Virus record (IMG/VR): IMGVR_UViG_3300024999_000045
Location: 1 to 64,000 of that record
Origin: a virus
Strand: one strand, 5' to 3'
DNA length: 64,000 nt
Positions 21,340-25,498 of this stretch are shown here, one piece after another. The first letter of the stretch is position 1; each line of letters starts with the position of its first letter. Below the pieces are notes generated by a model. It worked only from the letters and a program-made list of their open reading frames with translations, did no database searches and was not told where the DNA came from. The position numbers were made by a program, and so were the translations under genes.

Positions 21340-21367
21340 TTGACATATTATTTACAAATGGTATAAT
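21340..21367 (+). promoter_or_regulatory. Sigma-A promoter of rnhA/NSSSTHS/radical SAM operon
   Basis: TTGACA 21340-21345, TGG-TATAAT 21362-21367. Confidence 0.75.
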
Positions 21368-21400
21368 ATAAATATAATAATATAACAACGAGGTAAAAAT

Positions 21401-21871
21401 ATGGATAAAATAATTATATACTGCGACGGATCCTGTCTTAATAATCAAAGCGAGGTAAACTTTGGAGGGTGGGGTGCAGTAATTCAATTCAAAGACCAAA
21501 TAAAAGAGATTTATGGTGGAGAAAAGAATACCACAAATCAAAGAATGGAATTGTTAAGTTGCATTAAAGCCTTAGAGTTGCTTAAATCAAATAAATACAT
21601 AGTTGAAGTATATAGTGATAGTGCTTATTTAATCAATTGTATGCAGCAAGGATGGTATAAAAAGTGGCAATCTAATGGGTGGAGAAATTCACAAAAGAAA
21701 CCAGTGGAAAATAAAGATTTGTGGGAGCAATTAATTGTGTTAATTGAGGGGTTTAATATAAATTTTAATAAAATTAAAGGCCATTCGGGGAACAATTTAA
21801 ACGAAAAAGTAGATCAATTAGCACAAAAAGGTGCATATGAGATAAAGGAGAAAGAAAATGAAAAAAATTAG
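21401..21871 (+). CDS. rnhA: Ribonuclease HI
   Basis: YCDGSC, TTNQRMEL, YSDSAY, KPVENKDLW, KGHSG...NEKVDQLA. Confidence 0.95.
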   Translation: MDKIIIYCDGSCLNNQSEVNFGGWGAVIQFKDQIKEIYGGEKNTTNQRMELLSCIKALELLKSNKYIVEVYSDSAYLINCMQQGWYKKWQSNGWRNSQKKPVENKDLWEQLIVLIEGFNINFNKIKGHSGNNLNEKVDQLAQKGAYEIKEKENEKN

Positions 21872-22352
21872 AAATAGTGTTTTTGAAACAAATTCAAGCA
21901 GTACGCATTCAATTTGCATTACTAAAAATAATGTATTGAATGATAAAAGAAGTGAAATTAGTTTTACAATAGGCGAATTTGGTTGGGAATGTGATACATT
22001 GTCAACTCCTTATGAAAAAGCACAATATCTTTACACTGGTGTCTTGGCAAATAACAGAGAAGAATTGATAGACCAAATCAAATCAATATTAGATAAAAAT
22101 AATATTAGTTATGATTTTCAAGAACCAGAATTTGAGACATATGGAGACGAGAATCATAAATATTTAAAAGATGGATATATTGACCACTCATGTGAATTAG
22201 GTGGATTTTTAGATATTTGCACAGATGAAAATAAATTAATGAGATATTTGTTTTCTTCAGAAAGTTTTATTATAACAGGCAATGATAATGATGATTACGA
22301 CGTGGATATTAATGTAAATTATGACCACGAAGAATACTACAAAGGAAACTAG
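21858..22352 (+). CDS. FETNSSSTHS-motif protein A (unknown function)
   Basis: N-terminus MKKIRNSVFETNSSSTHSICI. Confidence 0.8.
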   Translation: MKKIRNSVFETNSSSTHSICITKNNVLNDKRSEISFTIGEFGWECDTLSTPYEKAQYLYTGVLANNREELIDQIKSILDKNNISYDFQEPEFETYGDENHKYLKDGYIDHSCELGGFLDICTDENKLMRYLFSSESFIITGNDNDDYDVDINVNYDHEEYYKGN

Positions 22353-22364
22353 GAGGATTTAAAA

Positions 22365-22655
22365 ATGAGAACAATAAGAAGAGGCGTTTTTGAAACAAAC
22401 AGTAGTTCAACACACAGTATTAGCATCGTATCAAAAGAAGAATTTGATAAATGGAAGAATGGCGAATTGTTATATGACAGGTATGAAAAATTATTTTTAA
22501 CAAAAGATGAATCACAGGAACTCGAAGACCAAGATGATTTAAATACATATGACGAATATTTTGATGATGGGTGTTTAGAAGGTTTTACAAAAAAACACAC
22601 TACAAAGAGTGGTGATGAAATAATTGCTTTTGGTAAATATGGATATGATGGTTAG
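22365..22655 (+). CDS. FETNSSSTHS-motif protein B (unknown function)
   Basis: N-terminus MRTIRRGVFETNSSSTHSISI. Confidence 0.8.
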   Translation: MRTIRRGVFETNSSSTHSISIVSKEEFDKWKNGELLYDRYEKLFLTKDESQELEDQDDLNTYDEYFDDGCLEGFTKKHTTKSGDEIIAFGKYGYDG

Positions 22656-22700
22656 TGATAATTAATAATTATATTCTACATAATATAAGGAGAGATTAAA

Positions 22701-23234
22701 ATGATAAAAATAAGAAGATGTGTATTTGAGACAAATAGCAGCTCAACCCACAGTATAAGTATTTATAAATGGACGCCAGTGAAAGAAAGTAAAATCCCTA
22801 AAAATAAATCAATTGAGGTTAAAGGTGGAGTACCACCACAAACTGAAATAAAAGATGAATTAGGTAAATTAAAATATATTATATGTATATTAGCATCATT
22901 AGAAGAAAATATTCAGAATAGACAAGGTGAAGATTATATTTATGGAGTAGATTGTTGTTCGTACAAAGATGGATATAAATATTTTGAAATAATGATTAAT
23001 AGTAATCGTTTTAAATGGCTTAAAGAAATAATAAAAGAAAAATGTAATACAGATATAAAATATATTACTACCGATGATTGTTTTCCTTACTATGAAACTG
23101 TGTATAATGATGGTAGTTCATTAGAAAGTATATTAGCATGTGATATAAACGACGAGCAGTCATTCAAAGAAAGAATTTCTGAAATTATATTTGAAGATAA
23201 TTATGTTATAGAGGATAAGGAGAATGAATATTAA
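22701..23234 (+). CDS. FETNSSSTHS-motif protein C (unknown function)
   Basis: N-terminus MIKIRRCVFETNSSSTHSISI. Confidence 0.8.
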   Translation: MIKIRRCVFETNSSSTHSISIYKWTPVKESKIPKNKSIEVKGGVPPQTEIKDELGKLKYIICILASLEENIQNRQGEDYIYGVDCCSYKDGYKYFEIMINSNRFKWLKEIIKEKCNTDIKYITTDDCFPYYETVYNDGSSLESILACDINDEQSFKERISEIIFEDNYVIEDKENEY

Positions 23235-24118
23235 TGGATATTAAATTATTAGGGTCATATAACAACGGAAATTATACCGTGGAAATATATAATGATGGGA
23301 CAAAAATTAGGGAAACAGACGATGATAGTTTTATATCGTCTTTCCCAGAATGCATTGATTTAAAAATAACTAATTATTGTGATATGGGGTGTCCTTATTG
23401 CCATGAAAATTCAACTAAAGACGGTAAACATGGAGATATACTCAATACCGAATTTATTAATACATTACAACCATATACCGAATTAGCAATTGGAGGTGGG
23501 AATCCATTAGACCACCCTGATTTAATTGAATTTTTACATAAATTAAAAGAAAAAAATATAATTGCAAACATAACAGTAAATCAAAATCATTTTATGAAAT
23601 ATGAATCTATTATTTTAGATATGGTAAATAAAGAATTAATTAAAGGTTTGGGAATTTCTTTAACAAATGCAAATGATATTCATTTTATTGCAAGACTAAA
23701 AGAGTATCCAAATGCAGTTTTACATGTTATTAATGGGATTATTGGCCTTAAAGACTTAGAAAAATTATATGGTTATGGCTTTAAAATATTAATATTAGGT
23801 TATAAACAAATTAGAAGGGGTATAGAATATTATTCAGACCAAGTAGAAACAAATAAAAAGGTTATTTTTGATAATATTAGTGACATTATTAATGGATTTA
23901 AGGTTGTAAGCTTCGACAATTTGGCAATTAGACAATTAGAATTAAGAAGAATTTTCACAGATAAAGATTGGAATGAATTTTTTATGGGTGATGATGGTCA
24001 ATTTACAATGTATATTGATTTAGTTGAGGAAAAATTTGCATTAAGCTCTACAACATTAGAAAGACATGATGTAAAAGATAATATTATTGATATGTTTAAT
24101 ATTGTAAAGTCTAAATAA
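23234..24118 (+). CDS. Radical SAM enzyme
   Basis: CxxxCxxC (YCDMGCPYCH), GGGNP motif; no C-terminal SPASM Cys cluster. Confidence 0.9.
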   Translation: MDIKLLGSYNNGNYTVEIYNDGTKIRETDDDSFISSFPECIDLKITNYCDMGCPYCHENSTKDGKHGDILNTEFINTLQPYTELAIGGGNPLDHPDLIEFLHKLKEKNIIANITVNQNHFMKYESIILDMVNKELIKGLGISLTNANDIHFIARLKEYPNAVLHVINGIIGLKDLEKLYGYGFKILILGYKQIRRGIEYYSDQVETNKKVIFDNISDIINGFKVVSFDNLAIRQLELRRIFTDKDWNEFFMGDDGQFTMYIDLVEEKFALSSTTLERHDVKDNIIDMFNIVKSK

Positions 24119-24166
24119 AAGAAGAGTTTTATTTAAATATAAATATAATATTAAAAGGAGACAAAT

Positions 24167-25255
24167 ATGAGAAAATTAGCGTCAATACAAAAAATAATTG
24201 CATTAAACCCAATAGAAAAAGCTGATGCAATAGAAGTTTGTACAGTATTAGGTTGGGAATGCGTTGTAGCAAAAAAAGATAATTTTAAAGTTGGAGATTT
24301 AGTTTGTTATATTGAAGTAGATAGTATAGTGCCTGATAGATTAGAATTTGAATTTTTAAGAGATAGAAAATTTAGGGTTAAAACTATAAAATTAAGAGGT
24401 CAAGTAAGCCAAGGGTTAGTATTACCATTATCTATATTACCAAAAGGAAATTATAAAGAAAATGAAGATATAACAGAAATTCTTGGTGTTAAGAAACATG
24501 ACCCACAAGCTGATGCAGAGAGAAAATCAATAGAAGAAAAATTAGCCACAAGTAACAATCGTGTTCATAAATTTTTTGCAAAATACTCATGGTATAGAAA
24601 TATATTTTTTAAACCAAAGAAAAGCAATTTTCCTAAATTTATAAAGAAAACAGACGAGGATAGAATTCAATTATTCCCACATATTTGTGAAAATGAAAAA
24701 GATACAGTATTTAGTGTAACTGAAAAATTAGATGGTCAAAGTGGAACATACTTTTTAATTAAGAACCCTAGAAGGTTTTTGTTTGGTAAAAAATATATAT
24801 TTGGTGTTTGTAGTAGAAATATTCATTTAACTAAAGAAGATAATAGTTCTTATTGGACTATAGCTAGACAATATAATATTGAAAAAGTTTTAAATAATTT
24901 AATTGAAAATAACCAATTTATAGTTTTACAAGGAGAAATTTTAGGAACTGGAATTCAAGGTAATAAATATAAGGTTGATGGATATGATTTCTATGCTTTT
25001 AACTTAATATATCCTAATAAACAAATTAGCAGCATAGCTGCAAAGTTGTTATTAGAGGGATTTGAAATTAAATTTGTACCTATATTAGAAACTGGATTTA
25101 AATTAAAAGAAACAATAAAAGATATGGTTGAATACGCTAAAGGTAATTCTACTTTATTGCCAGTATTAAGAGAAGGTGTTGTAATAAGAAATTATAATAA
25201 AAATACTAGTTTTAAAGTAATAAATCCTGACTTTTTACTAAAAAATGAAGAATAA
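24167..25255 (+). CDS. RNA ligase (Rnl2-like, DRB0094-type)
   Basis: MRKLASIQKI N domain, TEKLDGQS adenylation motif, QGEI, FYAFN, REGVV, FKVIN. Confidence 0.88.
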   Translation: MRKLASIQKIIALNPIEKADAIEVCTVLGWECVVAKKDNFKVGDLVCYIEVDSIVPDRLEFEFLRDRKFRVKTIKLRGQVSQGLVLPLSILPKGNYKENEDITEILGVKKHDPQADAERKSIEEKLATSNNRVHKFFAKYSWYRNIFFKPKKSNFPKFIKKTDEDRIQLFPHICENEKDTVFSVTEKLDGQSGTYFLIKNPRRFLFGKKYIFGVCSRNIHLTKEDNSSYWTIARQYNIEKVLNNLIENNQFIVLQGEILGTGIQGNKYKVDGYDFYAFNLIYPNKQISSIAAKLLLEGFEIKFVPILETGFKLKETIKDMVEYAKGNSTLLPVLREGVVIRNYNKNTSFKVINPDFLLKNEE

Positions 25256-25498
25256 GTTTAAATAAAAAGATTGTTTTACTGAAAAGGAGAGGCTATGTGG
25301 ATAATAGGATTTAATACGGGGTATTACCCTTATATATTAACATTTAAAGATGAACAAAAAGCAAAAGAAGAATATGAATATTTAAAATCCAGTAAAAATG
25401 AAGAAGAGACAGTGTATTTGGCTGAAGTAAAAGAATTTGACGGTGATATTGAATTTGAAGATTAAATAAAAGATTGTTTTTATCAAAAGGAGAAAATT

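Follow-up and report, generated by a model that had tools for sequence, protein, structure and literature searches.

The genes of the locus

The window analysed here is a stretch of 64,000 nucleotides of viral DNA (positions 1 to 64,000 of IMG/VR virus record IMGVR_UViG_3300024999_000045), and our subject is a run of four genes on its + strand (Table 1). The first three encode proteins, A, B and C, that share the start M-x-x-I-R-x-x-V-F-E-T-N-S-S-S-T-H-S-I in identical register, which we refer to as the tag, and the fourth encodes a compact radical S-adenosylmethionine (SAM) enzyme. Exactly three tags and one radical SAM gene are present in the whole virus record (130 kb). We report that tagged proteins and enzyme make up a conserved two-part phage module, which is probably a protein-modification system. 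A first-pass annotation of this DNA had noted the three open reading frames (ORFs) with the identical motif in the same register, and the overlap of the third with a CxxxCxxC radical SAM gene that lacks a SPASM domain. Both observations stand: the ORFs are where it placed them, the TAA of C and the ATG of the radical SAM gene overlap (TAATG), and the enzyme holds four Cys in all.

Table 1. Tagged genes, radical SAM gene and adjacent features of the window
Feature	Position	Strand	Description
Tagged protein A	21858-22352	+	164 aa, pI 4.4; A-type core partner; C-terminal YYKGN; phrog_28997
N-terminal tag of A	21858-21917	+	MKKIRNSVFETNSSSTHSIC
Tagged protein B	22365-22655	+	96 aa, pI 4.6; short B-type partner; C-terminal AFGKYGYDG
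N-terminal tag of B	22365-22424	+	MRTIRRGVFETNSSSTHSIS
Tagged protein C	22701-23234	+	177 aa, pI 4.9, 7 Cys; rarer body family
N-terminal tag of C	22701-22760	+	MIKIRRCVFETNSSSTHSIS
Compact radical SAM enzyme	23234-24118	+	294 aa; PF04055, phrog_16999
RNase H	21401-21871	+	PF00075, E 5e-37; upstream in the same apparent operon; outside the conserved module
RNA ligase	24167-25255	+	PHA02142 OB fold and RNA_ligase domain; downstream; outside the conserved module
Sigma-70-type consensus promoter	21340-21367	+	TTGACA, 16 nt spacer, TG, TATAAT; pattern match only

The N-terminal tag

Protein A opens with MKKIRNSVFETNSSSTHSI, B with MRTIRRGVFETNSSSTHSI and C with MIKIRRCVFETNSSSTHSI. In a DNA alignment of the three 5' ends, the Ser codons of the tag read TCA AGC AGT in A, AGT AGT TCA in B and AGC AGC TCA in C. 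Given that the codons differ among the copies (TCN versus AGY), selection acts on the peptide and the tag is not a DNA repeat, in agreement with the protein-level conservation that the first-pass annotation had read from the same codon switches. The logo of 299 unique proteins is M-K-x-Q-I-R(100%)-x-G-V-F(97)-E(100)-T(99)-N(99)-S(100)-S(100)-S(97)-T(76)-H(99)-S/A-I/L. The Gly that precedes V-F-E is 53% conserved, and no Gly is invariant across the tagged proteins.

A profile of the tag alone (36 positions), searched exhaustively against 1.84 billion cluster representatives, matched 7,427 of them at E <= 0.001 and 1,394 at E <= 1e-10. Among the 150 best of the 7,427 representatives, the match begins at residue 1 in almost all, and no sequence fused upstream of the tag was found. 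A region-restricted search for long fused proteins that bear the tag alone gave five candidates. Distant branches keep T-N-S-S-S-S-H-S and have the Glu replaced, as in the Salmonella phage Arash and the database protein P0143 (G-F-A-T-N) and in p106 of the Rhodothermus phage RM378 (G-L-S-T-N). The tagged proteins are acidic: their median pI is 4.6, and 98% of them fall below 5.5. Proteins A, B and C have no significant match in Pfam, NCBIfam, PADLOC or the PDB sequences, and the tagged half of the module is new to these databases, with no assignment in any of them.

A conserved two-part phage module

Among deposited phages, tblastn found A in 24 records, 15 of them Prevotella Lak megaphages and nine from the Microcystis phage Ma-LMM01 group, and the enzyme is encoded in the same 24 records at 44-48% identity. 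The gene order in Ma-LMM01 is gp130 (tag), gp129 and gp128 (enzyme). Lak-B5 has the enzyme gene in front and, behind it, genes for four tagged proteins, among them clear orthologues of A, ending in YYKSN, and of B, ending in FGKYGYDG.

We then considered 159 loci fetched by the tag from IMG/VR contigs and GTDB genomes (the GTDB loci are mostly contigs of metagenome-assembled genomes (MAGs), together with a small number of isolates, Eubacterium plexicaudatum ASF492 among them). Tagged ORFs were called in 145 of these loci and the enzyme in 134; where the enzyme is missing, the locus is in many cases short or stops near the tag. Five enzyme-less loci were rechecked over the whole record or assembly, and four of them had an orthologue. 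In L135 and L136 it lay on the contig itself, just past the fetched flank, in L018 on the contig but about 20 kb from the locus, and in L100 elsewhere in the assembly, on a separate contig. The remaining locus belongs to a fragment that is 59% complete. In the opposite direction, all 79 loci fetched by the enzyme carry one to three tags, on the same strand and at a median of 408 nt from the enzyme start.

Given that the same tag stands beside the same enzyme in hundreds of unrelated contigs, chance is excluded as the reason for their association. The data show that enzyme and tag depend on each other, and the two probably touch. The first-pass annotation had coupled the motif proteins to the enzyme in function, and among the loci fetched, motif proteins do not commonly occur without the enzyme. 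Together with the two-way gene linkage, natural fusions and the conservation of the pair in Lak phages, Ma-LMM01, Arash and RM378, this leaves functional coupling of the tagged proteins with a SPASM-less radical SAM enzyme strongly supported.

All-against-all clustering of 3,491 ORFs from the loci gave no other family present in more than 19 of them, and no Pfam family occurs more than three times in 150 flanking proteins from dereplicated loci (RNA ligase twice, RtcB once and AAA_33 kinases three times). Nor did the ORF clustering or the Pfam annotation of the flanking proteins identify a protease, exporter or transporter family common to the loci. Since no third family is shared, the module consists of the enzyme and the tagged proteins, and RNase H and RNA ligase are neighbours.

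The module occurs in large phages of Bacteroidota, Firmicutes, cyanobacteria, candidate-phyla bacteria, Salmonella and Rhodothermus. It lies amid early or replication genes, and in many phages amid genes for nucleotide and nucleic-acid functions. Two MAG contigs, from Fibrobacter (L135) and Prevotella (L136), have 9-10 tagged paralogues that run in one direction, with the single enzyme gene just beyond the flank. Weaker radical SAM relatives in phages RB43 and phiYS40 have no tag nearby and were placed outside the system.

The radical SAM enzyme

The enzyme matches PF04055 with 39.1 bits (cut-off 29.5) and phrog_16999, a family without tested function, with an E value of 4.1e-55 over residues 34-288. 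The CxxxCxxC motif is formed by C49, C53 and C56, and these three Cys are invariant in 51 orthologues. No further Cys is invariant and the C-terminal part, a beta-hairpin and helix (residues 258-293), is free of Cys rather than Cys-rich; thus, there is no site for a SPASM or twitch cluster. The orthologues share a GGG(N/D)P motif and polar invariants that include H164, K191, D228-N229 and D254. The AlphaFold2 (AF2) model has a predicted local distance difference test score (pLDDT) of 96.9 and includes a three-stranded N-terminal beta wing (residues 5-27), in which the motif Y-x-N-G-N-Y...D-G-T-K-I-R is conserved among orthologues.

Compared with solved structures by VIA-align, the model has a partial (beta/alpha)6 TIM-barrel fold, with Z scores of 10-19 to about 50 radical SAM structures. 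The best matches, SkfB (19.0) and SuiB (18.1), cover nearly the whole model and are followed by viperins (about 16), EpeE (15.7) and BlsE (15.4); PqqE (14.7), MoaA (14.1), the anaerobic sulfatase-maturing enzyme anSME (13.9) and pyruvate formate-lyase (PFL) activase (10.9) score lower. The alignments to SkfB and SuiB begin at residues 2-5 of the model and so span the N-terminal wing. Most other structural matches begin at residues 22-40, and the few that span the N-terminus do so at much lower Z. Sequence profiles match the solved enzymes over the common core only, at E values of about 1e-3.

Bodies of the tagged proteins

Without the tag, the proteins fall into about 30 body groups. The A-type body, which occurs in 134 of the 145 tag-bearing loci, is about 165-195 aa long and ends in YKGN, and the B-type body, found in 90 loci, is about 92-174 aa long and ends in AFGxYGxD. 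The body family of C, present in only five fetched loci, is one among many small groups. A locus has one to 10 tagged copies, and the tagged partners range from about 90 to 320 aa.

In its degree of conservation, the A-type body is close to the enzyme. Its invariant residues, including those of the tag, are R5, E10-S15, H17, G39, G42, W43, K54, Y57, T60, D109, H110, T140, N142-N144 (which read N-D-N in A), K162 and N164, the last residue of A. Outside the tag, B-type proteins conserve only W30, G33, E72, T79/T80, G83 and the C-terminal AFGxYGxD. In a comparison of the A and B bodies, hhalign found no homology beyond the tag (probability <1%). The only short element that they have in common is FGx[FY]G[WY], which lies about 29 residues past the tag Phe in A and at the C-terminus in B. 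A glycyl-radical role for the C-terminal YGYDG of B was considered and rejected, as no Gly is universal.

Protein A matches phrog_28997, also without tested function, at E 1.7e-31 over residues 3-164. Its AF2 model (pLDDT 88, predicted template modelling score 0.84) falls below a pLDDT of 50 at residues 1-12 and nowhere else is of low confidence, which is consistent with these residues forming a free tail. No solved fold matches the model (best E 0.9 in Foldseek against the PDB; best Z 2.6 in VIA-align against 48,161 chains), and neither search found an alkaline-phosphatase/sulfatase fold, so that the predicted A-type core fold appears to be new. A search of BFVD with the model returned one uncharacterised homologue only, and the ESM Atlas returned unnamed viral clusters and one structural match to a cluster that bears a Tad2-like domain. 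This last match, which we treat as a lead only, has a template modelling score of 0.61 over 130 residues to a viral cluster of 261-aa proteins, 97% of whose members have the Tad2-like PF11195. Since solved Tad2 structures do not match A, the likeness would concern another part of these proteins; neither this genome nor Lak-B5 contains PF11195.

The larger tagged proteins contain no known Pfam domain, save for a beta-propeller-like insert in one A-type gene. This gene, seen in two IMG/VR loci (L061:5879-7237 and L062) and in database protein P0121, is split after GEFGWE by an insert of about 290 aa to give a 452-aa ORF. The insert has beta-propeller-type repeats with Pfam Lactonase and WD40-like matches.

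Fusions and distant versions

In three database proteins (P0126, P0136 and P0143), an A-type domain, with the tag first, is joined to the enzyme. The same arrangement is found in gp146c of the Salmonella phage Arash (OQ632216.1; L168:3491-4921), a 476-aa protein annotated as a 'methyltransferase', in which the A-type domain MYLTQIRYGFATNSSSSHS is followed by the enzyme. This fusion has the sole tag in the Arash genome, and in Ma-LMM01, as in Arash, there is exactly one tag for each enzyme. The Arash paper does not name gp146 in its main text, the table of virion proteins included (PMC10585845). A gene for a small RNA ligase, gp143c, lies three genes downstream of gp146c.

The Rhodothermus phage RM378 has a distant version of the module (L169:2998-4813) that comprises the enzyme p108, a hydrophobic ORF of 70 aa (p107) and a 256-aa tagged protein, p106 (MKAFIRFGLSTNSSSSHS). 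Just upstream of it, on the opposite strand, is an HD-plus-kinase gene labelled 'poly A polymerase'.

Possible function of the module

We suspect that the module pairs one compact, single-cluster radical SAM enzyme with one to about ten acidic, co-encoded clients that would present it with a shared, strictly N-terminal tail, M-K-x-Q-I-R-x-G-V-F-E-T-N-S-S-S-x-H-S. That the enzyme docks on this free tail and modifies it chemically is a reading to which we give an even chance. In such a scheme the flexible tail would dock on the enzyme, with the I-R-x-G-V-F strand possibly lying against the N-terminal beta wing, as the leaders of ribosomally synthesized and post-translationally modified peptides (RiPPs) do on SkfB and SuiB. 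The T-N-S-S-S-x-H segment would be placed in the barrel, where the 5'-deoxyadenosyl radical would abstract a hydrogen and a covalent change would remain. The nearest precedent for the chemistry is the oxidation of Ser to a carbonyl (formylglycine-type). The modified tail would then serve the client's own function; the A-type client has an invariant polar pocket of its own (D109-H110, T-G-N-D-N at 140-144, K162 and N164).

Several features argue for modification of the tail. A single enzyme goes with one to 10 clients that have unrelated bodies, as would one maturase that serves many clients. The polar motif is invariant, as modification sites are, and the tail that carries it is strictly free and unpacked. 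The solved structures nearest to the enzyme model, SkfB and SuiB, are peptide-modifying enzymes. Other findings weigh against this reading. An enzyme and its substrate are not usually fused, as the A-type domain and the enzyme are in P0136, P0143 and Arash gp146, and together with the single tag per enzyme in Arash and Ma-LMM01 these fusions fit a permanent two-domain enzyme at least equally well. The auxiliary clusters with which anSME, SuiB and SkfB carry out oxidation or cross-linking are missing from the phage enzyme, and the nucleotide-acting viperins are structurally nearly as close. Finally, the RM378 enzyme is without the N-terminal wing, yet its tagged partner has been kept.

In kind, the module is closest to maturase-client systems, namely anSME with the sulfatases and the glycyl-radical-enzyme activases with their enzymes. 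In anSME/AtsB (PDB 4K36-4K39), one enzyme, as proposed here, acts on many whole-protein clients with a short invariant Ser motif near the N-terminus, and by sequence the S13-x-S15-x-H17 of the tag loosely echoes S-x-A/P-x-R. However, anSME needs two auxiliary clusters in a SPASM domain that the phage enzyme does not have, its client motif is C/S-x-P/A-x-R rather than T-N-S-S-S-T-H-S, and the phage clients are not sulfatases. The glycyl-radical-enzyme activases (e.g., PFL-AE, PDB 3CB8, with PFL, TdcE and GrcA) are also small and single-cluster, act on a flexible segment of folded partners and can each serve several partners, including a small 'spare-part' protein. Here the differences are that the structural match to PFL-AE is weaker and partial (residues 38-227), that the tag has no invariant Gly in an RVxG[FY]-type motif, and that C-terminal Gly residues are subfamily-specific.

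The RiPP maturases SkfB (PDB 6EFN; 258 residues aligned) and SuiB (PDB 5V1Q/5V1T; 277 residues aligned) resemble the phage enzyme in structure and in that the latter is encoded beside proposed peptide-bearing partners. Sequence identity is only 10-13%, though, and the phage enzyme is without their SPASM/twitch auxiliary-cluster cysteines. The phage partners also differ from leader-core peptides in being folded proteins, as modelled for the A-type, with the conserved piece at the extreme N-terminus. A RiPP-like product, which the first-pass annotation had offered as one outcome, is thus unlikely, given folded partners of about 90-320 aa, an A-type body as conserved as the enzyme and the lack of a linked protease or exporter.

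The main alternative to modification, possible though doubtful, is that the tagged proteins are subunits or adaptors of the enzyme, with the tail entering the barrel to complete or gate the active site. The variable bodies, of which the A-type would be the standard one, would bind the true substrate (a nucleotide, a nucleic acid or a host protein), and extra paralogues would be interchangeable specificity subunits. Such an arrangement would readily account for the natural single-chain fusions, for the one tag per enzyme in Arash and Ma-LMM01 and for an A-type body that is conserved to the degree of the enzyme and has an invariant polar pocket. It would explain the invariance of the tail too, in that every paralogue must fit one conserved enzyme, and the many invariant polar residues in the barrel region (H164, K191, D228, N229 and D254) are in its favour. 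However, B-type proteins of about 96 aa with few conserved body residues offer little for a substrate-binding subunit, and up to ten paralogues per enzyme are more typical of clients than of subunits. To our knowledge, there is no precedent for a radical SAM enzyme completed by the N-terminal tail of a partner.

We consider it unlikely that the enzyme acts on a small molecule, for instance in a viperin-like nucleotide reaction, while the product is processed or sequestered by a family of tagged paralogues, enzymes or binders that share a catalytic or ligand-binding motif at the N-terminus. Viperin and viperin-like enzymes are compact, lack an auxiliary cluster and match the model over about 225 residues with Z 15-16, and the viperin and pVip profiles (PADLOC pVip, 26.9 bits) give weak matches. 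Polar residues of the kind found at phosphate or metal sites are frequent in the tag, and the nucleotide and nucleic-acid genes around the module in many phages would suit such a pathway. The viperin profile NF038283, however, scores 21.6 bits against a family cut-off of 180, and viperins have no obligatory tagged partners; a Z of 16 reflects a shared superfamily fold only. Moreover, a catalytic motif that follows a first strand can normally be extended N-terminally, and the tag never is, AF2 leaves residues 1-12 of A unpacked on the body, and a partner of this type would not need fusion to the enzyme.

Prohead proteases of the T4 type cut at hydrophobic-x-Glu sites, to which V-F-E is similar, and the tagged proteins are small and acidic like some internal proteins. 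Even so, a sorting or processing signal (e.g., capsid targeting with a prohead protease cut after V-F-E), next to a radical SAM gene by mechanistically meaningless adjacency, is very improbable. It explains neither the invariant T-N-S-S-S-x-H, nor the fusions, nor a linkage that is near-absolute in both directions and involves a single enzyme family. In addition, the Glu is replaced by Ala or Ser in Arash, P0143 and RM378, the module lies amid early or replication genes, and gp146 goes unnamed in the Arash paper that tabulates virion proteins.

Returning to modification of the tail, we propose tentatively, and with somewhat less than even confidence, a general phage 'tag-and-modify' system. 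In it, a minimal radical SAM enzyme would leave a radical-derived covalent change on the free N-terminal tail of acidic phage proteins from a large superfamily (more than 7,000 clusters at 50% identity). The change might be an aldehyde, a keto group or a cross-link formed inside T-N-S-S-S-x-H, and it would yield a new protein-derived cofactor or a reactive warhead early in infection, for host takeover or counter-defence. Such a role would agree with the setting among early or replication genes and with partners that are acidic and diversifying.

We found no published description of the module in the literature on the tag motif, phage radical SAM enzymes, Arash or Ma-LMM01. The system of Kaur et al. 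(2020) is a different one, in which C-terminal peptides are associated with a radical SAM/SPASM enzyme (PMC7159879). If modification of the tail is confirmed, the module would bring a new post-translational modification by radical chemistry, and with it possibly a protein-derived cofactor that, like the fold on which it sits, is new; if the tail instead completes the enzyme, the module would be a new way to build a radical SAM holoenzyme. The carriers include Lak megaphages, from human and animal guts, and Ma-LMM01, a Microcystis phage that controls blooms. With only two to four genes and its presence in the cultured phages Arash, Ma-LMM01 and RM378, the module is tractable, and Arash gp146c is a cultured, genetically tractable example.

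Neighbouring genes

In the window, the RNase H gene (rnhA) overlaps the start of A. The promoter that the first-pass annotation had placed at 21340 was recovered with 12 of 12 hexamer positions of the sigma-70 consensus and an extended -10, as a pattern match only, and a transcript covering rnhA-A-B-C-rSAM, and perhaps the RNA ligase gene, is likely to start there. The + strand showed no terminator-like site from 21340 to 25318. The RNA ligase gene is directly 3' of the radical SAM gene, apparently in the same transcription unit, and its product has an N-terminal PHA02142 OB-fold (Pfam E 7e-30 and 3e-21).

The link to the flanking RNase H and RNA ligase, from which a role in nucleic-acid modification or counter-defence had been suggested, is not conserved (RNA ligase accounts for two of the 150 flanking proteins). 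An RNA ligase homologue lies within 7 kb in about 11 of the 159 loci. A dedicated RNase H, RNA ligase or RNA-repair link was rejected, given that such genes are only occasional neighbours (the window, L004, Arash, L133 and RM378).

The E. plexicaudatum isolate locus (L133:772-9674 in AQFT02000004.1) has three tags and the enzyme. Upstream are genes for YpsA/SLOG, RlaP, a CCA-adding/poly(A) polymerase-type nucleotidyltransferase with an HD domain and a DHHA1 protein, and downstream are genes for a vWA-TerF-like protein and a DNA methylase. The setting resembles an RNA-repair or conflict island, possibly a prophage.

A gut-phage contig (L003:508-4589) has an NAD salvage block directly upstream of the module. 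The block comprises an isochorismatase-like nicotinamidase, a protein like phosphoribosyl pyrophosphate synthetase, NAMPT, a macro domain and NAD synthase, the last being the only assignment checked with Pfam. In Arash, a NAMPT gene lies about ten genes from the module.

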